Source: an uncultured Bacilli bacterium (GTDB lineage: Bacteria > Bacillota_I > Bacilli_A > RF39 > UBA660). From it: DNA of 64,000 nucleotides. The DNA lies in the NCBI GenBank assembly GCA_934101495.1, contig CAKORG010000002.1, positions 510 through 64,509 on the forward strand. Reading direction: 5' to 3'. Within the stretch, counting starts at the first letter, position 1. Every line of letters starts with the position of its first letter. The notes below the pieces were generated by a model. It did not search any database. It saw only the letters and a list, made by a program, of their open reading frames with translations, and was not told where the DNA came from. Shown here piece after piece: positions 3,665 through 52,725 of this stretch. Position numbers and translations under genes: made by a program.

Positions 3665-6178
3665 ATGGATCATAGTAGAGATAGATTACAAGAAAATAAT
3701 ATTGTAAGTGAAATTGAATCGTCTTTTATTGAATATTCAATGAGTGTTATTATTTCCAGAGCTTTGCCGGATTTAAGAGATGGTTTAAAGCCAGTTCATA
3801 GAAGAATTATCTATGACATGTTAGAAAATGGTTTGACACCAGATAAAAAACATCGTAAAAGTGCTACGATAGTTGGGGATGTTATGGGGAAATATCACCC
3901 ACATGGTGACTCATCAATATATGATGCTATGGTAAGAATGGCACAAGACTTTAATTATCGTTATTTACTTGTTGATGGACATGGTAACTTTGGTAATATT
4001 GAATATCCTAGAGCTGCTGCTTATCGTTATACTGAAAGTAAGCTTGCTAAGATTTCAATGGAACTTTTAAGAGATATCAACAAAAACACTGTTAATTTTG
4101 TACCAAATTATGATGATTCTACGGTAGAACCTGAAGTTTTACCTTCAAGATTTCCAAATATTTTAGTAAATGGAACAATGGGTATTGCTGTTGGTATGGC
4201 CACAAATATTCCACCACATAATTTAGGTGAAGTTGTTGATGGTTGTATTGCTTATATTGATAACCCTGATATTACTACGGAAGAGTTAATGCAACATATT
4301 AAAGGACCTGATTTTCCAACTGGTGGTATTATTTTAGGTAATTCTGGAATAAAGAAAGCTTATGAAACTGGTAGAGGTTCTATAACTATTAGGAGTAAAG
4401 CCACAATTGAAGAAAAAAATGGAAGACATTATATTGTTATTGAAGAAGTTCCTTATGGTGTTAATACATTAGATTTAAAACAAAAAGTAGCTGATTTAGT
4501 ACATAGCAAAGTACTTGAAGGTATTACTGATTATCATACTGATTTAAAAGATGGTATTAAAATAACTATAACACTTAAGAAAGATGCTAATCCTCAAGTA
4601 GTTTTAAATAATTTATATAAGCATACGGCTTTTCAAACAACTTTTGGTATTATTTTCTTGATGCTTGATAAAGGTGTACCTAGAACTTTAGGTTTAAAAG
4701 ATATAATTAGTAAATATGTAGATTATCAACAAGAAGTTATTATTAGAAGAACTCAATTTGAATTAGATAAAGCTGAAAAGAGAGTACATATCTTAGAAGG
4801 TTACCAAATTGTATTTGATAATATCGATGAGGTTATTAAAATTATTAAAGAGTCTAAGGCTGATGGTGAAGCAAAGCTTAAGTTAATGGAACGTTTTGGA
4901 TTAACTGAAGCTCAAACTGATAATATTCTAGAAATGAAATTACGTCGTTTAACGGGTCTAGAACGTGAAAAGATTGAAGAAGAACTAAATGCATTAAGAA
5001 TCGAAATAGAACGCTTACGTGGCATTTTAGCTGATAATAATAAGGTGTTAGGCATCATTAAAGATGAAATGACTGAAATTAAAAATAAATATGGTGACGA
5101 AAGACGTACTAAGATTGATATGACTGCGGTTGATTATATTGAAGATGAGTCATTAATTCCAGAAGAAAATATATTGGTAGTACTTACTAACAAAGGTTAT
5201 ATTAAGAGAACTACTGCTGATACATTTAAGTCACAAAATAGAGGTGGTGTTGGAATTAAGGGAATGTCTACGAATGATGAAGACTTTGTTGAACACATGA
5301 TTAACTTATCAACACATGATTATATCTTGTTCTTCACTGATAAAGGTAAGGTTTATAGACTTAAAGGTTATGAAATTCCTGAGTTTTCACGTCAATCTAA
5401 GGGTATTCCAATTGTTAACTTACTTCAAGTTGAAAAAGATGAAAGAGTAAATGCTGTTATTCAAATAAGTCGAAATGAGGATAGTAAATACTTGTTATTT
5501 GCAACCGAAGCTGGGGTAGTTAAGAAAACATTAATAAGTGAATTTGATAACATTAGAAATAGTGGTAAGATTTGTATTTCTTTAAGAGAAAATGATAAAC
5601 TTATTGGTGTTAAAAAGACAACAGGTAATGAATTGGTACTTCTTGGTAGTGATAGTGGTAGAATGGTTAAGTTTAATGAAGATGAAATTAGAGTTATGGG
5701 ACGTACTGCTTCCGGTGTTCGTGGTATTTCATTAGATGGAAGTAAGTGTATTTGTTCTGAAATTGTTAAAGAAGAAGATACTATACTTCTTGTAACTGAA
5801 AAGGGTTATGGAAAACAAACTAAGGTTAGCGAATACCGTCAAACTAGAAGAGGTTCTAAAGGTGTTAAAGCTATGAATATTACTGAAAAGAACGGTAATT
5901 TAGTAAGTGTTAAGATTGTTCATGAAGGTAAAGAACTCGTTATCATGACAAACTCTGGTATGACAATGAGAATGCCACTTGATCAAATATCTATTCTTGG
6001 TAGAGTTACGCAAGGTTTAAGACTTATTAATTTAAAAGATAATCAAAAGGTATCTACGATTAGTTTAGTAGATAAGACAGAGGAAGAAACTTCTGAAGAA
6101 AACACAGAACAATGTGAAAATGTTGCTCAAAATGAACCAAAAGTAACCGAAAATATTCAAAATACTGAGGCTGAATAA
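3665..6178 (+). CDS. gyrA: DNA gyrase subunit A
   Basis: [38 protein letters not shown], and the active-site AAYRYTE region. C-terminal beta-pinwheel repeats and an acidic tail. Confidence 0.98.
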
Positions 6179-6360
6179 GCCTTTTTATTTTGAATTATTG
6201 CGTATATACAATGTATAATTCAATAATTTTTATAATAAAAATCCATTATTTTGGCTGAAATATGCCAAATATTTTTTATCTTTATTATCTAATGTATGAG
6301 TTATCAACATAATTTTTGATTTGAATAAAACCGGTTATTTAATTTTTTATTTCATATTTA

Positions 6361-6376
6361 TGTTTCACGTGAAACA
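6361..6376. promoter_or_regulatory. parS: parS site 1 (perfect TGTTTCACGTGAAACA)
   Basis: Exact match to the universal parS palindrome, flanked by A/T to give the 18-bp palindrome ATGTTTCACGTGAAACAT. Confidence 0.9.
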
Positions 6377-6491
6377 TTTATTTAACATTGTTTAATTATC
6401 CTATTGTTTATTTTTTCACTTAATTATTTTAATTTACTTTTAAATTATATTATATCATTTTATGAAGTTATTTATTTATAATATGTCTGAA

Positions 6492-6507
6492 TGTTTCACG
6501 TGAAACG
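6492..6507. promoter_or_regulatory. parS: parS site 2 (TGTTTCACGTGAAACG, 1 mismatch)
   Basis: 15/16 match to consensus; the last base is A>G. Confidence 0.8.
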
Positions 6508-6649
6508 TTTAGTTATAACATTTTAATATTTTAATAGTTTTGTTATATTTTTATAATAATTAATAATTTTTAATTAATATTATAATTATAATTACTATTA
6601 TTTTATTATTTTATTTATAACATTGTTATTATTTACTATGATATTTTAA

Positions 6650-6665
6650 TGTTTCACGTGAAACA
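6650..6665. promoter_or_regulatory. parS: parS site 3 (perfect)
   Basis: Exact TGTTTCACGTGAAACA, followed by TGTTGATAA at 6669-6677. Confidence 0.9.
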
Positions 6666-6741
6666 TCGTGTTGATAACATGTTAATTTTTACATTTTTAT
6701 ATAATAATTATTATTTATAATTATTTTTACGATTATATTTA

Positions 6742-6757
6742 TGTTTCACGTGGAACA
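6742..6757. promoter_or_regulatory. parS: parS site 4 (TGTTTCACGTGGAACA)
   Basis: 15/16 match. Its reverse complement is TGTTCCACGTGAAACA, which fits TGTTNCACGTGAAACA. Followed by TGTTGATAA at 6759-6767. Confidence 0.85.
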
Positions 6758-6826
6758 TTGTTGATAATCGGTTATTAATTATATAATAAGCTAATTATTA
6801 TAGTAAAATAATTCTATATTTCATGA

Positions 6827-6842
6827 TGTTTCACGTGAAACA
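6827..6842. promoter_or_regulatory. parS: parS site 5 (perfect)
   Basis: Exact TGTTTCACGTGAAACA. Confidence 0.9.
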
Positions 6843-6928
6843 TCTGTTAGTAACTTGTTTGTATTCTATAATTGGTTTTATCTTGATAAAACTTTTATTT
6901 TTTATATCATTTGTAATAAACAATTTTA

Positions 6929-6944
6929 TGTTTCACGTGAAACA
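6929..6944. promoter_or_regulatory. parS: parS site 6 (perfect)
   Basis: Exact TGTTTCACGTGAAACA, followed by CGTTGATAA. Confidence 0.9.
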
Positions 6945-7033
6945 TTACGTTGATAATTAGTTACTAAGTACTTAATTAAGATTTACTTATGACATAATCA
7001 TCTTTTACAATTAATATATATAGCTAAAATATA

Positions 7034-7049
7034 TGTTTCACGTGGAACA
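7034..7049. promoter_or_regulatory. parS: parS site 7 (TGTTTCACGTGGAACA)
   Basis: 15/16 match, the same variant as site 4. Confidence 0.85.
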
Positions 7050-7103
7050 TATATTATTTTGTGTTGATAGTTCGATGATAATAAGGTTTATAATGTGTTT
7101 TAA

Positions 7104-7119
7104 TGTTTCACGTGAAACG
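7104..7119. promoter_or_regulatory. parS: parS site 8 (TGTTTCACGTGAAACG)
   Basis: 15/16 match, the same variant as site 2. Confidence 0.8.
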
Positions 7120-7254
7120 TTGTTAATTTACTAATAAATACCGCAATATTTTATTCGAATAAACGTATGTAACAACAAACAAATGTTTATTTAAAAACTT
7201 TTTTATTATATAACTATTATTTTGAAAGATTTTTATATATAATATAGCTTATAT

Positions 7255-7270
7255 TATTTCCCGGGAAATA
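7255..7270. promoter_or_regulatory. Noc-binding site (NBS) 1, perfect TATTTCCCGGGAAATA
   Basis: Exact 16-bp NBS palindrome (core ATTTCCCGGGAAAT). It lies inside the 32-bp repeat TTATTTCCCGGGAAATAATTGGTTAACATAAT at 7254-7285. Confidence 0.8.
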
Positions 7271-7411
7271 ATTGGTTAACATAATGTTATATTAAAAAGT
7301 ATAAAAAAATAAATTTTTAAAATGTCACGATGTAAGTAATTAACTAGGACTGATGAGAGTTATAAATTTAAAATTTTTATAAAAATAATAAAAGTTATGT
7401 CTTATCAAATT

Positions 7412-7427
7412 TATTTCCCGGGAAATA
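7412..7427. promoter_or_regulatory. Noc-binding site (NBS) 2, perfect TATTTCCCGGGAAATA
   Basis: Second exact copy, inside an identical 32-bp repeat at 7411-7442, 157 bp downstream of copy 1. Confidence 0.8.
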
Positions 7428-7550
7428 ATTGGTTAACATAATATTTAAAATAAGACAAAATTTTAATAAAGTTAGTATTTATCGAAGGATATTTTGTATT
7501 TTTAAATTAGTTTTCTTAGTTATTAACATTATTTTTGTGCTTGATTATAC

Positions 7551-7579
7551 TTGACTTATTGATTATAATTTGATACTAT
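7551..7579 (+). promoter_or_regulatory. sigma-A promoter for the SRP RNA
   Basis: -35 TTGACT at 7551-7556, 17-nt spacer, extended -10 TGaTACTAT at 7571-7579. Confidence 0.6.
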
Positions 7580-7583
7580 TTAG

Positions 7584-7667
7584 ACGTGCAACAAATATGC
7601 TGTAACCTGGTCAGAATTGGAAAATAGCAGCCACATCAGCCTATGTTTGTGTGCACATTTTTTTTGG
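7584..7667 (+). ncRNA. ffs: small (4.5S-type) signal recognition particle RNA
   Basis: CCUGGUCAGAAUUGGAAAAUAGCAGCCA matches SRP domain IV (GGUCAG..GGAA tetraloop..AGCAGCC). The 5' GUGCAACAAA pairs with the 3' UUUGUGUGCAC, and a U-run follows. In B. subtilis the scRNA gene also lies in the tadA/dnaX neighbourhood. Confidence 0.8.
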
Positions 7668-10659: not shown

Positions 10660-10696
10660 AAAATAAATTTTTCATATAGTTTTAGTGGAGATACTT

Positions 10697-10885
10697 ATGA
10701 AAAAAGTTATATTTGTTGTAGTAAAAAAAATAGTACTTGCAATATGCTTAGTATATGCCTTTAATTTACTAGCATCTGGTTTAAAAGTCTTTATTCCAAT
10801 TAATGTTGTAACAGTAAGTGTTGTTGCATCACTTGGGATGAGTGGACTTTTGGCTTTGGTAGCAATATATTTTGTTTTACTCTAG
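10697..10885 (+). CDS. small two-TM membrane protein, BofA-like (pro-sigma-K processing inhibitor family)
   Basis: 62 aa with two hydrophobic helices. IPINVVTVSVVASLGMSGLLALVAI resembles the BofA C-terminal motif. Sits in the recR-...-bofA syntenic slot. GGAG lies 6 nt before the ATG. Confidence 0.5.
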   Translation: MKKVIFVVVKKIVLAICLVYAFNLLASGLKVFIPINVVTVSVVASLGMSGLLALVAIYFVLL

Positions 10886-16940: not shown

Positions 16941-16993
16941 TACATAAAAAAAATAATTTGTTCCACAATAAGTAATGAAGTGGAGTGAATTTT

Positions 16994-17506
16994 TTGAAAC
17001 AAACTGGTGTAACAAGAAAAATAGATGAACTTGGAAGAATAGTTATTCCAAAAGAAATTAGAAAAAACTTAGGTATTAGGGATGGTGAGGCTTTAGAAAT
17101 ATTTACTAGTGAAGATAGTATAATATTAAAAAAATATTTTGAAGTTAGAAAGTATGAAGATTTAAGTAGTAAATTATGTGAACTAATTAAGAATATTTAT
17201 AATGTTGATTTAGTAATTACGGATAGAGAAAAGGTTATTACTTCTTCGAATAAGGATATTGTGGAAAACATTAAACTTAATAACAAATTTTTAGAGCTTA
17301 TTGATAATAGAGAAATGTTTATAAGTAAAGAGTTATTAACAATAAATTTAGGTATTGATATAAGTGGATATTTTACAGTTATACCTATTATTGTATCAAG
17401 TGACTCATTGGGGCTTGTTATAATTATAAGTGATAATGCTAATGATTATAATTCTTTGGGAAAATTACTTGCAAAAATTATTGCTGATAAAATTGATATA
17501 TTTTAA
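16994..17506 (+). CDS. spoVT: stage V sporulation protein T (AbrB-family regulator with GAF-like C-domain)
   Basis: KQTGVTRKIDELGRIVIPKEIRKNLGIRDGEALEIF is a SpoVT/AbrB swapped-hairpin N-domain. About 170 aa, located after mfd as in B. subtilis. TTG 16994 preferred over GTG 16985. Confidence 0.85.
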   Translation: MKQTGVTRKIDELGRIVIPKEIRKNLGIRDGEALEIFTSEDSIILKKYFEVRKYEDLSSKLCELIKNIYNVDLVITDREKVITSSNKDIVENIKLNNKFLELIDNREMFISKELLTINLGIDISGYFTVIPIIVSSDSLGLVIIISDNANDYNSLGKLLAKIIADKIDIF

Positions 17507-22052: not shown

Positions 22053-22844
22053 TTGGTGATAATTATTTTGAATATAGAAAAAGGTGATTATGTAACTAGA
22101 AATAGTTATGGTAATGATACTGTATTTAGAGTTATTAATATAAAAGATGGAATATACTATCTAAAAGGTGTTGAAGTTAGATTAGTAGCTGATGCTGAAG
22201 CTTTAGATTTAAGAAAAGAAGAAAACATTCATGAAGATGATGTAATTGATGATATTGATTTACTTGATGATAATTTAGACCGAGGTGAGTTCTTTTATTT
22301 GCCTGCGAAAGCACTGCATATAGATTCTGATGAAGAATATCTTGCAAGATGCCTAAAGTTTTATAAAAGAAATGGCATAATGGCTGTTGGTAAAAAAATA
22401 AATGAAAAGAATGTTTATGAGCAGTTACCTACGTTATTAAAAGAATTTAGACCAGATATTGTGGTTATTACTGGACACGATGCTTATTATAGAAAAAAAG
22501 GTGACGCTAAAGATATTAAAAATTATAAGAATTCAGCATATTTTGTTAAAGCAGTTAAGGCAGCAAGAAATTATGAAAAAAGTCATGAGAAATTAGTTAT
22601 AATTGCTGGAGCTTGTCAAAGTGATTATGAAGAATTAATTAAGGCTGGTGCTAATTTTGCATCAAGTCCAAAGAGAGTTAATATACATGCCTTAGATCCA
22701 GCGATTATTGCTAGTACTGTTGCACTAACTGAGAGAAATAAAGAAATAGATTTAAAAAAGTTACTCGATAAAACAAAATATAAAGAAGATGGTATGGGTG
22801 GACTTATATGTAATGGGCTTATGTATGTAGGTTATCCTAGATAA
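22053..22844 (+). CDS. yabG: sporulation-specific protease YabG
   Basis: PDIVVITGHDAY...IIAGACQS...ASSPKRVNIHALDP is characteristic of YabG (peptidase U57). ksgA-yabG-veg synteny. Non-ATG start, exact start uncertain. Confidence 0.88.
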   Translation: MVIIILNIEKGDYVTRNSYGNDTVFRVINIKDGIYYLKGVEVRLVADAEALDLRKEENIHEDDVIDDIDLLDDNLDRGEFFYLPAKALHIDSDEEYLARCLKFYKRNGIMAVGKKINEKNVYEQLPTLLKEFRPDIVVITGHDAYYRKKGDAKDIKNYKNSAYFVKAVKAARNYEKSHEKLVIIAGACQSDYEELIKAGANFASSPKRVNIHALDPAIIASTVALTERNKEIDLKKLLDKTKYKEDGMGGLICNGLMYVGYPR

Positions 22845-30804: not shown

Positions 30805-31587
30805 ATGGATGGAAAAATAAGAGAAATTATTGACGAGTATAAAAAAAGAACTGAGAAGGAATGTTGTTTTATAAATTATGCTTTTGAATTTCCAACTATA
30901 TTAGACGACAAGATTGGAGGAAAACCCTATTTACCTGTGGGAGAAGAGTATCCAAAAGATAAGTATGGAAATCCAATGGCTTTATTCATGCAAGTGAATT
31001 TGACAAAGTTAGATTTAGAAGGTTATCCAAAAGGAATTTTAGAATTGTTTGTTACAACAAATGAAGATGATCTTTTTGACTTTGAAATAGCAGAAGGTAG
31101 CTTTGAAATAAAGCTTTTTGAAGAAGATTTAGAATACCAAACAATACTACCTGATGTGAAATTAGAAACATTTTTAGTAAGTGGTCCAATAAAAATAGAG
31201 TTTAATAAAGGGAAAATGAGCATGCCATATAATATGGGAGATAATAAAGCTGTAAATTTATTGTTAGATTTATTTGAAGAAAAATTTGATGTAAAAATAA
31301 ATTATCCAAGTGATTTGGAAAAATTATTTGGTATAGATTATTATGATTTACAAGATAAATTAGATGATGGTAGTGGTTTTGCTTCACATGTAGGGGCTTA
31401 TGCGGCTTTTATAAATGACCCATATATTGATTATTATGATAAAGAAGAATGCTTAATTTTTATTGGATCAAATTTAAGTGAAATGTTTGATTTGGGTAAC
31501 GCCTCTAGCTTTTATGTGTTAATATCAAGAAAAGATTTGTTAAATAAAGATTTTTCAAATGTTACTTGTAATTTTGAATGGTCATAA
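30805..31587 (+). CDS. YwqG/DUF1963-family protein
   Basis: GGKPYLPVGEEYPKDKYGNPMALFMQVNL, and C-terminal FYVLISRKDLLNKDFSNV, typical of the YwqG family. Confidence 0.7.
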   Translation: MDGKIREIIDEYKKRTEKECCFINYAFEFPTILDDKIGGKPYLPVGEEYPKDKYGNPMALFMQVNLTKLDLEGYPKGILELFVTTNEDDLFDFEIAEGSFEIKLFEEDLEYQTILPDVKLETFLVSGPIKIEFNKGKMSMPYNMGDNKAVNLLLDLFEEKFDVKINYPSDLEKLFGIDYYDLQDKLDDGSGFASHVGAYAAFINDPYIDYYDKEECLIFIGSNLSEMFDLGNASSFYVLISRKDLLNKDFSNVTCNFEWS

Positions 31588-31601: not shown

Positions 31602-31853
31602 ATGGAAGAAGAGAGAAAAGATAATAAAGTAATAATCAATGGCAAAGAATATGAAATTATTTCTTATATTGCTATTGATAGTGGAAATTTCATTGTTTAT
31701 ACGGATGGAAAACAATTAGAAAATGGAAAAATTGTGTTATATGTTAATCGTGTTTCTCAAGAAAATGAAGAAATAGTATTTGATGAAGTAGAAGATACTG
31801 AAGTAATGCAAGTAATTGATGCATTAAGAGAAAGGTTGATAACTAATGAATAA
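31602..31853 (+). CDS. DUF1292-like small acidic protein
   Basis: NGKEYEIISYIAIDSGNFIVY...IVLYVNRV...EIVFDEVEDTEVMQVIDAL follows the DUF1292/YrzB pattern. GGAG lies 7 nt before the ATG. Confidence 0.5.
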   Translation: MEEERKDNKVIINGKEYEIISYIAIDSGNFIVYTDGKQLENGKIVLYVNRVSQENEEIVFDEVEDTEVMQVIDALRERLITNE

Positions 31854-33192
31854 TAAATATGATAGTTTAGTTGATTATTCTATAGAACTTAGAAAGAGCA
31901 TAGAAAAAGTTGATACTGTTATACTTTGGTCGAAACCTCCGAAACAAATGGGAAGTTTAAAAGTTACACTACGAGGTATTTCTGAGATTTTTGAAAATAT
32001 TAAAAAAGTGCAAGAATTGCGAGAAAAAATGAGAAAATTTCCTAGTATGGATAATGAAGCTAAGCAAGAAAATAAAAGTGCTAGAAAGGCTGCGGACCAA
32101 ATAAGTTCTATAAGAGAAGAACTAGCTGAAAGTTTTTCTAAAATGCGAGATGAATTTTCAAAACAAATGAAAATTGCAGGAAAACAGTGTAGAGAAGTAA
32201 GTAGTTCAATAACTGATAAACGAGATAAAGAAACATTTAAATCCTCATGTAAAAACTTTGAGAGAATGGCTTATGAAGCTGAATATGAAAAACATAGAAT
32301 ACCTTTTGTTGAAAAACAGACTACAGAAGAAAGAATACAAGACCCAATAAGAAGAGAACATAAGGAAAAAGAGGAAAAAATAAATAGACTTTCAGAGTTT
32401 GAATTAGAGAATAACGATAAATTAGAGGTGGCTTTAAGTGAACTTACTACAATATTAGCATTAACTCCGATGGATAATTTATCAAAAGAAATTAGAAGTG
32501 AAGTTGCTCAGATTAGGAAAGCTTTGCCACCTAAAACTATGTCTATAACTAAAGAAAATTTAGAAAAACTACGACATTCTTCGCATTTGTTGCTAGACTT
32601 AGACCAAATAAGTGATATCTTGAAAACTACTTATGGTTTTGATGGAAAAGATGGAAGATTACAAAAAATAAATAAAAGATTAGAAAACTTAAAAACATTA
32701 TTAACACAAGCAATAAAAGAAGAAAAAGAAAATAGAGTAGACCTTAAACAAGAACAAGATAGTCTTCAAAGTAAGGTTGATTATGCAACTGAAGCTGTTA
32801 AAACTTATGGTGATATATTAGATGGAAATCAAAGACTTGAACAGGAACAGATACGAATTAGTAATGAAACTCATGGACTAAATGCTGAAAACGAAAGATT
32901 AAAAGCTGATGAGAAAAAAGCAAGTGAAGAGATGCATGAAATACAAAAGAAACCCGTTGATAGACAAGATTGGAAAGATGAACTAAAAGTTGATCAATTA
33001 CATGAACGGGCAAAAAATGATCGTGAAATGATAAAAGATAATGAAACTTATATGGCTGATAAAATGTACGAAAAACCTGTAGTTACTTTGCCGCCGGAAT
33101 ACACTAACATGAAAAAGAAACTTCAAAGTATGAGTTCTTTATATCAAAAGCAAATGACTCAACAACTATCTAATGGAGGTGCTTCAAGATAA
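31846..33192 (+). CDS. hypothetical 448-aa highly charged coiled-coil protein
   Basis: Long ORF overlapping the upstream stop by 8 nt. K/E-rich with heptad-like stretches. No enzymatic motif recognised. Confidence 0.6.
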   Translation: MNNKYDSLVDYSIELRKSIEKVDTVILWSKPPKQMGSLKVTLRGISEIFENIKKVQELREKMRKFPSMDNEAKQENKSARKAADQISSIREELAESFSKMRDEFSKQMKIAGKQCREVSSSITDKRDKETFKSSCKNFERMAYEAEYEKHRIPFVEKQTTEERIQDPIRREHKEKEEKINRLSEFELENNDKLEVALSELTTILALTPMDNLSKEIRSEVAQIRKALPPKTMSITKENLEKLRHSSHLLLDLDQISDILKTTYGFDGKDGRLQKINKRLENLKTLLTQAIKEEKENRVDLKQEQDSLQSKVDYATEAVKTYGDILDGNQRLEQEQIRISNETHGLNAENERLKADEKKASEEMHEIQKKPVDRQDWKDELKVDQLHERAKNDREMIKDNETYMADKMYEKPVVTLPPEYTNMKKKLQSMSSLYQKQMTQQLSNGGASR

Positions 33193-34517: not shown

Positions 34518-35564
34518 ATGAATAATAATATAGTCTTATATAAATCAACTGGTGAGGGTTATGAAATAACTACTATTAAAGAAAATGGAAATGTTGAATA
34601 CAAAAGTAATTCAAGTGATAAAAAAATAGTTCATATAGATTTTTTTAATGATTTAGTGAATGAATTAAATGGTGCTTTTGAAAAAATGCAATACGTTTAT
34701 GATAATGAAAAAAGTGAAACATTTTGTGTTAGATATAGAAATTATGATTTTTATAGTTTTGATTTATATTTAGATATTATATTAATGATTAGAAATAACA
34801 AATTAAAAAAGCTATCTGTTTATGAAAAATATAAAAAATTAAAAAAAACGCAAGAAAAGCAAAAAATTTCAACAATTTTAAACAAATTAGAAAACGAAAA
34901 AAATAAAATTGATATAATAGATGTTGATTCAACATTAAATGATGAAAGAAATATTATATTATTTGATTTAATTAATAAAAATGAGTTTCGAGTTGGAGAA
35001 ACAAAGTTTTTTTCAAATACTGTTGATGTAAATGAAAATGTAGAGATACCAGAATATTTAATATTTGTTGGACAAATAAATTTGGAAGAAGTGTCAAAGT
35101 ATGATATAAATAAACTATTACCTAAAAAGGGAATGCTGTATTTTTATATAAGCCCATTATTCTATAATGATAAAATGTATGACTTTGGAAAAGTTATTTA
35201 TGTTCCTTCAGCTGAAGATTTAGTAAGAAAAAAAGTAACTATGTCAGAAGAAGAAACAATGGATTCTTTTGGAATAAACAATATTAAAAATTGCAATGAG
35301 AAATTTAGTGATAGATATTATTTTGAAAAAGGAAAAAAAACATATTCACATTTTTATGGAGAAAAACTTAATAAAATATTTGGATTTTATACTGATTGTC
35401 AAATGGATGAGGGAGATATAAGGAAAGTATCTAATAAATATATAGTGTTATTACAATTAGGAACGCAGATATATGGAGAAGGAGTTACTACATTTTTAAT
35501 AACAGAGGAAGATTTGAAAAATAAGAATTTTGATAATGTTATTTATCAATATGTTCAATCATAA
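34518..35564 (+). CDS. YwqG/DUF1963-family protein with about 170-aa N-terminal extension
   Basis: IPEYLIFVGQINLEEVSKYDINKLLPKKGMLYFYIS, and C-terminal YIVLLQLGTQIYGEGVTTFLITEEDLKNKNFDNV. Confidence 0.65.
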   Translation: MNNNIVLYKSTGEGYEITTIKENGNVEYKSNSSDKKIVHIDFFNDLVNELNGAFEKMQYVYDNEKSETFCVRYRNYDFYSFDLYLDIILMIRNNKLKKLSVYEKYKKLKKTQEKQKISTILNKLENEKNKIDIIDVDSTLNDERNIILFDLINKNEFRVGETKFFSNTVDVNENVEIPEYLIFVGQINLEEVSKYDINKLLPKKGMLYFYISPLFYNDKMYDFGKVIYVPSAEDLVRKKVTMSEEETMDSFGINNIKNCNEKFSDRYYFEKGKKTYSHFYGEKLNKIFGFYTDCQMDEGDIRKVSNKYIVLLQLGTQIYGEGVTTFLITEEDLKNKNFDNVIYQYVQS

Positions 35565-41932: not shown

Positions 41933-42301
41933 TTAGTATGTTTTTTCTGAGAAACTGTGAGAATAGATAATTGGTTCCATGAACTCAACATAGTTTAAAT
42001 AAATTATTCTAATTAAGTACCAAATATTATTTGTGTTATCTCTGATTATAAGATGATCTCTGCCTGCTTCTTCAATTATACCTTCATATACCTTGTTTTG
42101 CCATGCGCTACTGTCTGGGTAAGAAACATAAGCTTTAATCTTTCTTCCTTTGTTAAGTCTTAGAATATTTTCTATATAACTCTGTTCTTCTGGCAATTTA
42201 TTATTTACCTCAGTTACTGACATATTTCCTGGTGGAGTTTGAAAACTTTGACTAGGAAATGTTGGATTTTGATAGAAATTACCATTCATTTTTAAATTCA
42301 C
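41933..42301 (-). CDS. gerQ: spore coat protein GerQ
   Basis: EQSYIENILRLNKGRKIKAYV...YEGIIEEAGRDHLIIRD...YLNYVEF matches GerQ (YwdL). Confidence 0.8.
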   Translation of the reverse strand: MNLKMNGNFYQNPTFPSQSFQTPPGNMSVTEVNNKLPEEQSYIENILRLNKGRKIKAYVSYPDSSAWQNKVYEGIIEEAGRDHLIIRDNTNNIWYLIRIIYLNYVEFMEPIIYSHSFSEKTY

Positions 42302-51789: not shown

Positions 51790-52725
51790 GTGAAATCAAA
51801 AACATTTAAAACATTAGATGAACAAATTGACATACTAACTAAAAAAGGATTAGTGGTTGAAGATTTTGAAACTGCTAAAACTGTTTTGTTACGTGAAAAT
51901 TACTTTTTCTTAAGTGGTTACCGTCATTTATTTATGAGACCCGATGATAACAAGACTTATCTTGAAGGTACAACATTTAATGAATTGTATTCAATGTTTC
52001 TTTTTGATAGACAAATAAGAAATATAATTTTTAAAAATATTTTAATAGTAGAAAATAATTTAAAAAGTATACTTGCTTATATTATGAGTAAAAATCATGG
52101 GTTTAAAGAAAATAATTATTTAAATCCAAATAACTTTGTGAGAGATTCAAGAAGAAATAGACAAATTAATGATTTAATCAGAAAAATGAAAAGACAGATA
52201 AGTGTTAATGGTAAACAACATAGTGCAACAGCTCATTACATCATAAATTATGGTTATATTCCTCTTTGGGTTGTTGTTAAAGTTTTATCGTTTGGAATAG
52301 TAGGTGAACTTTATACTGTACTTCAATATCAAGACCAAAAGGAAATTGCTGATGTTTTTGGGGTTAGTATTGATAGTATGGTTGATTATTTACCAATTGT
52401 AGCTAATTATCGTAATTTGTGTGCTCATGAAGATATTTGTTATGTTAATAGAACTCAAAAGGCTATTGATGATACAAAATATCATAAACTATTGTATATT
52501 CCTAAGATAAATGAAGAATATATATATGGGAAGAATGATTTGTTTGCACTTATAATTATTTTAAAACAGTTATTAGATGAAGATAATTTTAACTTATTTA
52601 TTAGCGAAATCAGTTATGAATTTGATAGACTTTCTGGTAAATTAAAGGTAATTAAGATAGAAAAAGTATTACATGAAATGGGATTTCCAAATAATTTTAA
52701 AGAAATAGTGAGGTTAGAAAAATGA
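51790..52725 (+). CDS. Abi_2 family (AbiD/AbiF-like) abortive-infection protein
   Basis: The N-terminus FKTLDEQIDILTKKGLVVEDFETAKTVLLRENYFFLSGYRHLF is the hallmark Abi_2 opening. HEDICY follows near RNLCAHE. GTG start after AAAGGCGG. Confidence 0.8.
   Translation: MKSKTFKTLDEQIDILTKKGLVVEDFETAKTVLLRENYFFLSGYRHLFMRPDDNKTYLEGTTFNELYSMFLFDRQIRNIIFKNILIVENNLKSILAYIMSKNHGFKENNYLNPNNFVRDSRRNRQINDLIRKMKRQISVNGKQHSATAHYIINYGYIPLWVVVKVLSFGIVGELYTVLQYQDQKEIADVFGVSIDSMVDYLPIVANYRNLCAHEDICYVNRTQKAIDDTKYHKLLYIPKINEEYIYGKNDLFALIIILKQLLDEDNFNLFISEISYEFDRLSGKLKVIKIEKVLHEMGFPNNFKEIVRLEK

Follow-up and report, generated by a model that had tools for sequence, protein, structure and literature searches.

A cluster of parS and Noc-binding sites beside the replication origin of uncultured gut Bacilli, a predicted loading platform for two ParB-family proteins

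The window examined here is the whole of a 64,000-nucleotide stretch of DNA from an uncultured Bacilli bacterium of the human gut, a species known from metagenome contigs (GenBank assembly GCA_934101495.1, contig CAKORG010000002.1, positions 510 to 64,509 of the forward strand). Between gyrA and the gene for the small signal recognition particle (SRP) RNA it contains a gap of 1.4 kb and 19% GC, in which eight parS sites are followed by two Noc-binding sites (NBS). This gap is probably an origin-proximal, untranscribed, centromere-like hub, the predicted loading platform for two paralogous clamps of the ParB family that depend on cytidine triphosphate (CTP). The argument draws upon the sites themselves, their upkeep at a single locus throughout the lineage, the discreteness of the two site types and a Noc-type paralogue encoded to the left of oriC, and it has to be weighed against the absence of ParA and canonical ParB from the neighbourhood.

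parS and NBS in the window and across the lineage

A search for the parS palindrome TGTTTCACGTGAAACA, with up to two mismatches allowed, returned eight matches, all of them within positions 6361-7119, and no further match in the rest of the window. Four are perfect and four carry one mismatch, the latter forming two identical pairs that end in AAACG (6492 and 7104) and in GTGGAACA (6742 and 7034). Based on dinucleotide-preserving shuffles of the window, 0.03 matches are expected by chance, and none of 100 shuffles reached eight. The first-pass annotation of this DNA had reported eight such sites, four perfect copies plus two pairs of identical variants spaced 70-158 bp apart from start to start, and the search and the measured spacings (131, 158, 92, 85, 102, 105 and 70 bp) bear it out. 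Its identification of the 16-mers as canonical parS holds as well, the 16-bp palindrome of chromosomal parS, tGTTNCACGTGAAACa, being matched by all eight with zero or one mismatch. In order along the gap, and with no strand assigned, they are parS 1 (6361-6376; perfect TGTTTCACGTGAAACA), parS 2 (6492-6507; one mismatch, TGTTTCACGTGAAACG), parS 3 (6650-6665; perfect), parS 4 (6742-6757; one mismatch, TGTTTCACGTGGAACA), parS 5 (6827-6842; perfect), parS 6 (6929-6944; perfect), parS 7 (7034-7049; one mismatch, again TGTTTCACGTGGAACA) and parS 8 (7104-7119; one mismatch, again TGTTTCACGTGAAACG).

Starting about 150 bp past the last parS, and overlooked by the first-pass annotation, are two perfect copies of the NBS palindrome TATTTCCCGGGAAATA, likewise without an assigned strand. 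NBS 1 (7255-7270) lies within a 35-nt direct repeat at 7254-7288, and NBS 2 (7412-7427) within the companion repeat at 7411-7445, which is 97% identical to the first. Both contain the NBS core ATTTCCCGGGAAAT that is printed in PMC7383237 and in the Noc CTP-switch paper (bioRxiv 10.1101/2021.02.11.430593 = PMC8429893); NBS and parS differ at two positions per half-site (PMC7383237). No other NBS occurs in the window, even at three mismatches. An assembly artefact is ruled out, as three metagenome assemblies made independently of one another (L001/L009, L002 and L008) show the identical eight-site layout.

On its left the gap is bounded by gyrA (3665-6178, plus strand; NCBIfam) and on its right by the SRP RNA gene (scr; 7580-7665, plus strand; Rfam), after which come tadA, dnaX, ybaB and recR. 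It contains no open reading frame (ORF) of more than 45 aa and its sole Rfam match is the SRP RNA, which rules out a hidden coding or RNA function and upholds the earlier description of the gap as non-coding and AT-rich. The array is also origin-proximal, as is characteristic of chromosomal parS: dnaA lies ~2.6 kb left of the window, the array starts ~9 kb from the dnaA start codon (L009 coordinates), GC skew is strongly positive along the whole window, and all genes run with it. The array is not itself part of oriC, given that the skew keeps its positive sign and that perfect DnaA boxes flank dnaA on both sides.

For the comparison across the lineage, a GyrA-based scan of species-representative genomes supplied 24 lineage loci and 56 loci from other Bacilli; two of the lineage contigs stop just past gyrA, and the array counts rest on the other 22. 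The GyrA of these 22 related species is 59-82% identical to that of the window by full-length tblastn, with the closest species representative having 82% identity in its best segment. The gut samples that yielded metagenome-assembled genomes (MAGs) of the lineage are from human, mouse, rabbit and goat. GC content ranges over 23-31%, and the one genome that is closed measures 1.52 Mb; the MAG records are labelled 'uncultured Bacilli bacterium', once 'uncultured Tenericutes' and three times 'uncultured Muribaculaceae bacterium', the last probably being mislabelled bins. The order comK-like, recF, gyrB, gyrA, array, tadA, dnaX, ybaB, recR is kept in all 24 lineage loci, and a cluster of two to eight parS (at up to two mismatches) lies between gyrA and dnaX in all 22 species. 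Comparing the gyrA-tadA regions of related genomes, as the first-pass annotation had suggested, thus finds the parS cluster conserved at this locus in every species examined. NBS share the gyrA-dnaX interval in 14 of the 22, and the other eight have parS-only clusters. In the 56 non-lineage loci no cluster follows gyrA directly; two or three parS lie dispersed 1.7-6 kb beyond that point in a few Erysipelotrichaceae and in one unclassified Firmicutes MAG.

In several relatives the two site types are joined in composite tandem units (126 bp x 5.6 copies in L027, 64 bp x 7.8 in L028, 82 bp x 8.1 in L030 and 72 bp x 5.0 in L037), and in three others (L031, L032 and L035) the parS and NBS starts lie 23-28 bp apart. 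Over all interleaved arrays the parS-NBS spacing ranges from 23 to ~70 bp start to start, and with such variation co-localisation seems to matter more than exact geometry. The two classes nevertheless stay apart at the level of the individual site. Among 16-mers of the form T-N-TTTC-N-C-G-N-GAAA-N-A in 497 kb of lineage DNA, there are 107 half-sites of NBS type (A,C), 76 of parS type (G,A) and one hybrid, and no full site combines a parS half with an NBS half. Two discrete half-site classes are the pattern expected from two separate, specific readers.

Within the 64 kb, both NBS of the window lie in the one gap, and the NBS of the relatives are clustered there as well, with a few more within 10 kb. 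These extra single perfect copies were seen at the recF-gyrB junction (L014:7707, L015:7704 and L016:7706), within dnaX (L014:15021, L017:14295 and L032:14246) and 2-3 kb downstream of recR (L014:18605, L015:18424, L019:19122 and L027:19818). NBS therefore recur near the origin in relatives, inside or between genes, and the window species has none of these extras. One relative has an insertion between its gyrA and its parS/NBS cluster, an ORF of 390 aa (L033:12730-13902).

The Noc-type protein and the search for ParA and ParB

To the left of oriC, the genes rpmH, rnpA, yidC, jag, mnmE, mnmG and rsmG are followed by one ParB-family gene (399 aa; L011:14056-15255), beyond which a small gene and a penicillin-binding protein (PBP) gene lie on the opposite strand. 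The contigs concerned belong to the window's own species, judging by overlaps that are 100% identical (L010, with the window) and 97% identical (L011, over 1.6 kb). At the position of the noc-soj-spo0J locus, after rsmG, there is thus a single ParB-family gene, which is of Noc type and has no adjoining ParA. An 80-aa PT-HINT or intein-like fragment is encoded just upstream of mnmE (L011:9599-9841).

The best NCBIfam match of the 399-aa protein is the nucleoid-occlusion model TIGR04285 (274.9 bits), and its best matches among solved structures (PDB) are the Noc proteins of Geobacillus and Bacillus subtilis, ahead of Spo0J. At the four specificity positions, which are R-T-A-G in ParB and Q-K-K-R in Noc (PMC7383237), it carries Q-K-T-R. 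Q-K-x-R was found in 41 of the 42 lineage contigs of a metagenome scan, the 42nd stopping before the region, and the ParBs of unrelated organisms in that scan have R-x-x-G. Published work indicates that Q173 and R201 together with one permissive lysine (K179 and/or K184) confer NBS specificity, that parS-specific variants invariably keep R173 (PMC7383237), and that B. subtilis Noc does not load or accumulate on parS DNA (PMC8429893). Under these rules the Q-K-T-R residues make the protein a predicted reader of NBS and not of parS, i.e. a cognate paralogue with Noc-type specificity. Its CTP-binding motifs, GERRxRA and ENIQRxDL, are intact; the C-terminal region looks Noc-like by eye, although the aligner did not place the C-termini together. 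Noc-type proteins of the lineage also have a long, variable, acidic linker that in many species (lineage loci L094-L134) includes a conserved island, (P)NKFFNFLE(D). Nowhere in the linker is the helical hydrophobic moment higher than in the peptide NKFFNFLED (0.62, as against 0.56 for the B. subtilis Noc helix), which may be a relocated membrane-binding or partner-binding peptide.

The search for partner genes came back empty near the origin. Neither tblastn with Spo0J, Soj and the Noc-like protein nor NCBIfam and Pfam searches of called genes and of ORFs of at least 110 aa found a ParA or ParB-family gene in the 64-kb window; none was found within 10 kb of gyrA in the 24 lineage species, and no par gene within 10 kb of the array. 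Neither a ParA nor a second ParB-family gene turned up in the ~20 kb left of dnaA or, in 42 lineage contigs, in the 10 kb on either side of the noc-like gene. The region left of oriC was reached through MnmE homologues, and the metagenome scan, made with the Noc-like N-domain, gave 80 loci. As controls, the Spo0J query is 100% identical to a database protein, and the same search recovers noc-soj-spo0J or parA-parB in non-lineage contigs. In the non-lineage contigs of the noc-like-gene scan parS adjoins parAB as usual, and in the lineage there is no parS or NBS in 431 kb around the noc-like gene. Several AT-rich or low-GC candidates were set aside: P0347 and P0303 belong to other organisms, P0381 sits on a 1.8-kb contig (GC 31%, with an MscS-type channel as neighbour) that is too short to assign, and low-GC ParA-ParB contigs were read as Bacteroidota- or Rickettsiales-like on the basis of sequence motifs and neighbouring genes.

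Several of these results tell against a platform for two clamps. The earlier expectation that soj and spo0J would be found near oriC fails, with one Noc-type gene (Q-K-T-R) after rsmG, no ParA, and no canonical ParB (R...G residues) in the ~90 kb around oriC, from about -20 to +69 kb, or on any lineage contig; the stretch inspected represents ~6% of a genome of ~1.5 Mb. A Spo0J search of 1.84 billion protein representatives located no lineage ParB either. The score of the 399-aa protein lies below the curated TIGR04285 cut-off of 315 bits. The N-terminal membrane-helix segment is absent from 13 aligned lineage proteins, in which the ParB N-domain is preceded by only about 8-12 residues, and the aligned gene start by in-frame stop codons no more than 60 nt away; in Noc, this 10-residue amphipathic helix is required for nucleoid occlusion (PMC8429893). 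With a sub-cut-off score and a missing helix, Noc-type activity of the protein is uncertain. On the other side, the strict upkeep of canonical parS means that a canonical ParB very probably exists in the genome. In S. aureus, the parB and noc genes are far apart. With ~6% of the genome inspected, a ParB gene may well lie elsewhere here, and S. aureus keeps ParB without ParA, plus a separate Noc (PMC5540599).

The most serious alternative, still an unlikely one, is that the lineage lost canonical ParAB and that parS and NBS alike are read by one Noc-derived protein, or by some unknown factor outside the ParB family, in which case its parS would not be sites for ParB. One Noc-type gene and no ParA in all lineage DNA inspected is what that would produce, and the coupling of parS and NBS in one repeat unit in several species agrees with it. 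However, a relaxed reader would not enforce discreteness, and the lineage shows one hybrid half-site and no mixed full site. Variants with Q173/R201 are NBS-specific, with parS binding needing R173 (PMC7383237), and parS is not a loading site for Noc (PMC8429893). In eight lineage species the cluster at this locus consists of parS only, and both the small share of the genome inspected and the S. aureus precedent leave room for a separate ParB.

DnaA-box-like motifs, filler turnover and flanking transcription

Less probable still is that the array is a replication-control element, a cluster of DnaA boxes that titrates or positions DnaA and to which parS and NBS are accessory. A DnaA-box-like motif does follow parS above chance, at four of the eight sites in the window (GTTGATA), three of seven in L029 and five of six in L022. 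A few bases after parS 3 comes GTGTTGATAAC, i.e. the DnaA-box variant TTATCAACA on the minus strand (6669-6677), and after parS 4 comes TTGTTGATAAT, again TTATCAACA on the minus strand (6759-6767). The motif that follows parS in L029 (13197-13655) is the same GTGTTGATAAC, the reverse complement of TTATCAACA, and the boxes that follow parS in L022 (12593-13870) read T[AT]TCCACA, either the perfect TTATCCACA or the variant TTTTCCACA. A further TTATCAACA at 6301-6309 (plus strand) is a possible accessory motif, and the same variant occurs in the species' own oriC. Overall, the gap holds 2.1 DnaA boxes per kb and the window outside it 0.56; in L022 the excess is strong, and in S. aureus Noc restrains replication initiation (PMC5540599). 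Yet the arrays of 11 of 23 genomes have no DnaA boxes, including the most regular composite arrays (L027, L028 and L037), and the P-values of the excess after parS are inflated, as repeat units are not independent. An unbiased 8-mer scan of 23 spacers revealed no third motif common across species except the SRP RNA sequence, and the association of DnaA boxes with parS is specific to certain species. Additionally, GC skew does not change sign at the array, and the DnaA-box clusters that mark oriC flank dnaA.

The sites are maintained while the DNA around them turns over. In the window, the eight 16-mers share 94.6% pairwise identity and their 30-nt flanks 39-40%, against 36% for the random background of the AT-rich gap. 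Sites kept while their flanks sit at background are the signature of selection on protein-binding motifs. Tandem Repeats Finder detects no unit spanning the window array, which is thus not a head-to-tail repeat; parS 2 and parS 8 share a 17-nt upstream flank (family D1, 91% over 35 nt). In relatives L018, L021, L027, L028, L030 and L037 the units do run head to tail. From species to species filler DNA, unit length and copy number all differ, and what stays is the pair of 16-mers; the array also varies in position, lying before or after tadA. A diverged strain, L004, whose flanking genes match those of the window at ~98% identity, is missing precisely one interval between neighbouring parS, that from parS 6 to parS 7 (window 6929-7049 versus L004:349-420), and has point variants in two sites. 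Array copy number therefore changes by recombination between sites; the two strains are too similar for a within-species test of selection. The proposal of the first-pass annotation that the array grew by local duplication is thus weakly visible in the window species itself, where the 6492/7104 pair alone shares a short flank, and obvious in the tandem units of the relatives and in the copy-number change between strains.

Such lability could also come from a satellite-like repeat, neutral or selfish, that expanded from a single ancestral parS in an AT-rich gap prone to recombination and has no function as an array. Copy number and unit length do shift fast between species and even between strains, and four contigs (L023, L034, L036 and L037) break at or just before the expected array position. 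This explanation is nonetheless highly improbable, as the window filler has diverged to background with the 16-mers intact at 15 or more of 16 positions, all 22 species keep a cluster at the same position despite complete filler turnover, and two different palindromes for protein binding are kept together.

Two terminator-like hairpins (6167-6183 and 6250-6269, plus strand) end gyrA transcription upstream of the array, and promoter-like sites directly upstream of the SRP RNA gene (7541-7579, plus strand) form the downstream edge of the untranscribed gap. That the sites are operators, with ParB or Noc spreading to silence or tune the adjacent SRP RNA-tadA-dnaX-ybaB-recR operon, is equally remote, for even if the array ends ~150 bp upstream of the SRP RNA promoter, lies between tadA and dnaX in some species, and has precedents in ParB-dependent repression near parS in Pseudomonas aeruginosa and Streptococcus pneumoniae (PMC7022226), one or two sites would suffice for regulation, the position relative to promoters (before or after tadA) is not conserved, and loss of Spo0J in B. 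subtilis leaves the expression of parS-adjacent genes unchanged (PMC7022226).

Other features of the window touch on the organism rather than the array. A ComK-family gene (140 aa, Pfam PF06338; 97-519) lies between dnaN and recF, an unusual place for a competence-regulator homologue, and is present in all 20 lineage loci that cover the region (L014-L035). Genes for the sporulation proteins YabG protease (22053-22844), GerQ (41933-42301), BofA (10685-10885) and an SpoVT/AbrB-like protein (16985-17506) are present, and with the PBP gene adjoining noc they point to an organism that probably forms spores and has a cell wall. An Abi_2 (abortive-infection-like) gene (51790-52725) and two DUF1963 genes (30805-31587 and 34518-35564) flank a 448-aa ORF without a Pfam match (31846-33192), whose neighbourhood has an unusually high AT skew at 32-34 kb; this stretch may be a small variable or defence island.

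Predicted function and relation to known systems

On the reading favoured here, a loading platform for two paralogous clamps, canonical ParB would be loaded at the eight parS and, at the two NBS, the Noc-type paralogue whose gene follows rsmG. By analogy with the ParB and Noc proteins that have been studied (PMC8429893, PMC7022226), each 16-mer would nucleate a dimer, which CTP would close into a clamp able to slide onto flanking DNA. With many sites packed together, loading would be rapid and would build up a single dense nucleoprotein complex as a marker of the origin region, and in an untranscribed gap RNA polymerase would not sweep the clamps away. With no ParA at the usual locus, the likely output, as in the ParA-less S. 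pneumoniae and S. aureus, is origin organisation and SMC recruitment, not ParA-driven transport. The missing N-terminal membrane helix, along with the concentration of NBS in the gap, at least as far as the 64 kb extends, suggests that the Noc-type protein probably acts at the origin (through tethering, insulation of sliding clamps or replication control, the last having a parallel in the restraint of initiation by S. aureus Noc; PMC5540599) and not in chromosome-wide nucleoid occlusion.

A bolder version of this proposal, which we regard as tentative, is that the lineage organises its origin by means of a hybrid centromere, a single interleaved array that takes up both ParB and a helix-less Noc of switched specificity as neighbours, with ParA apparently absent. 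That would make the Noc-type protein a factor bound at the origin, and either an intermediate between ParB and Noc or the result of secondary re-purposing. If an intermediate, its specificity could have switched before the N-terminal membrane helix was gained; if re-purposed, NKFFNFLED would perhaps be the relocated contact with membrane or partner. In its extreme form, this version extends to a lineage without any canonical ParB.

With the parS/ParB (Spo0J) systems of Firmicutes such as B. subtilis, S. pneumoniae and S. aureus, the element shares the identical 16-bp palindrome TGTTTCACGTGAAACA and an origin-proximal location, and the expected mechanism would likewise be CTP-dependent ParB clamp loading and SMC recruitment. 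Versions without ParA occur in S. pneumoniae (PMC7022226) and S. aureus (PMC5540599), and model species have 4-10 parS close to oriC or within the ori domain (PMC7022226). Unlike those systems, the present one packs its eight sites, mixed with Noc sites, into 760 bp of DNA that is non-coding and a long way from any par gene, and has no cognate ParB gene at the canonical locus or elsewhere in the DNA searched. In model species, parS are spread over kilobases to hundreds of kilobases and are often inside genes. The array is denser than in the model chromosomes studied, as had been claimed for it.

The likeness to the Noc-NBS system of B. subtilis and S. aureus lies in the perfect NBS palindrome and in a paralogue after rsmG that has Noc-type residues and CTP motifs. 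However, NBS have been described as scattered around the chromosome (PMC8429893), whereas here they are clustered beside oriC and, in relatives, often alternate with parS, and the protein has no N-terminal amphipathic helix and a long, variable, acidic linker. The element, then, has the sequence and position of both parS and NBS, and the associated protein lacks two attributes of Noc, the membrane helix and a score above the NCBIfam cut-off.

The sopC centromere of the F plasmid is described as 12 repeats of 43 bp, each with a 16-bp inverted repeat that binds SopB (PMC3177203). The head-to-tail units of 35-126 bp in relatives, each with a 16-bp ParB-family palindrome, resemble it. Unlike plasmid centromeres of this type, which adjoin their own parA-parB operon on a mobile replicon, the present arrays are chromosomal (recF-gyrB-gyrA on one side, SRP RNA-tadA-dnaX on the other), have no adjoining parAB operon and carry sites for two paralogues in their units, and that of the window species is no longer a true tandem repeat. 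The first-pass annotation's comparison with a plasmid centromere is a fair one, in that mobile-element contigs in IMG/VR carry comparably dense parS-only arrays of chromosomal type, with up to eight sites in ~310 bp. Composite NBS-parS units were found in none of the 2.9 million viral or mobile contigs of that database. A side observation concerns 27 viral or mobile-element contigs (L177-L203) with two to eight chromosomal-type parS within 1 kb, just one of whose fetched stretches holds a ParB-family gene; such elements may exploit the ParB of their host.

Chromosomal parS clusters are also found in Caulobacter, Corynebacterium and Myxococcus; those of other phyla span ~5 to several hundred kb, lie mostly next to parAB and consist of one site type. 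The present array differs from them in a density that is an order of magnitude higher and in its composite nature. It resembles P. aeruginosa parS1-4 and the clusters of Streptomyces coelicolor in that several parS near oriC merge into one ParB complex, with P. aeruginosa having a 50-kb ParB peak over parS1-4 (PMC7022226). In the literature searched, no natural array combining parS with NBS is described.

ParB and Noc are the textbook case of a duplicated DNA-binding protein with two specificities and two jobs, the one at the origin centromere and the other in the control of division along the chromosome. In this lineage, both site types are found in one origin array, repeatedly and in many species, and they are paired with a Noc that lacks the feature responsible for nucleoid occlusion. 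The arrays therefore offer a natural test bed for whether ParB and Noc clamps cooperate, insulate or block one another when loaded a few bp apart, for the function of Noc before, or without, membrane binding, and for how ParA-less Firmicutes with small genomes mark and segregate their origins. As the sequences are short and can be synthesised, and as heterologous chromatin immunoprecipitation and CTP-loading assays already exist (PMC7383237, PMC8429893), these questions can be put to the test without culturing the organism.

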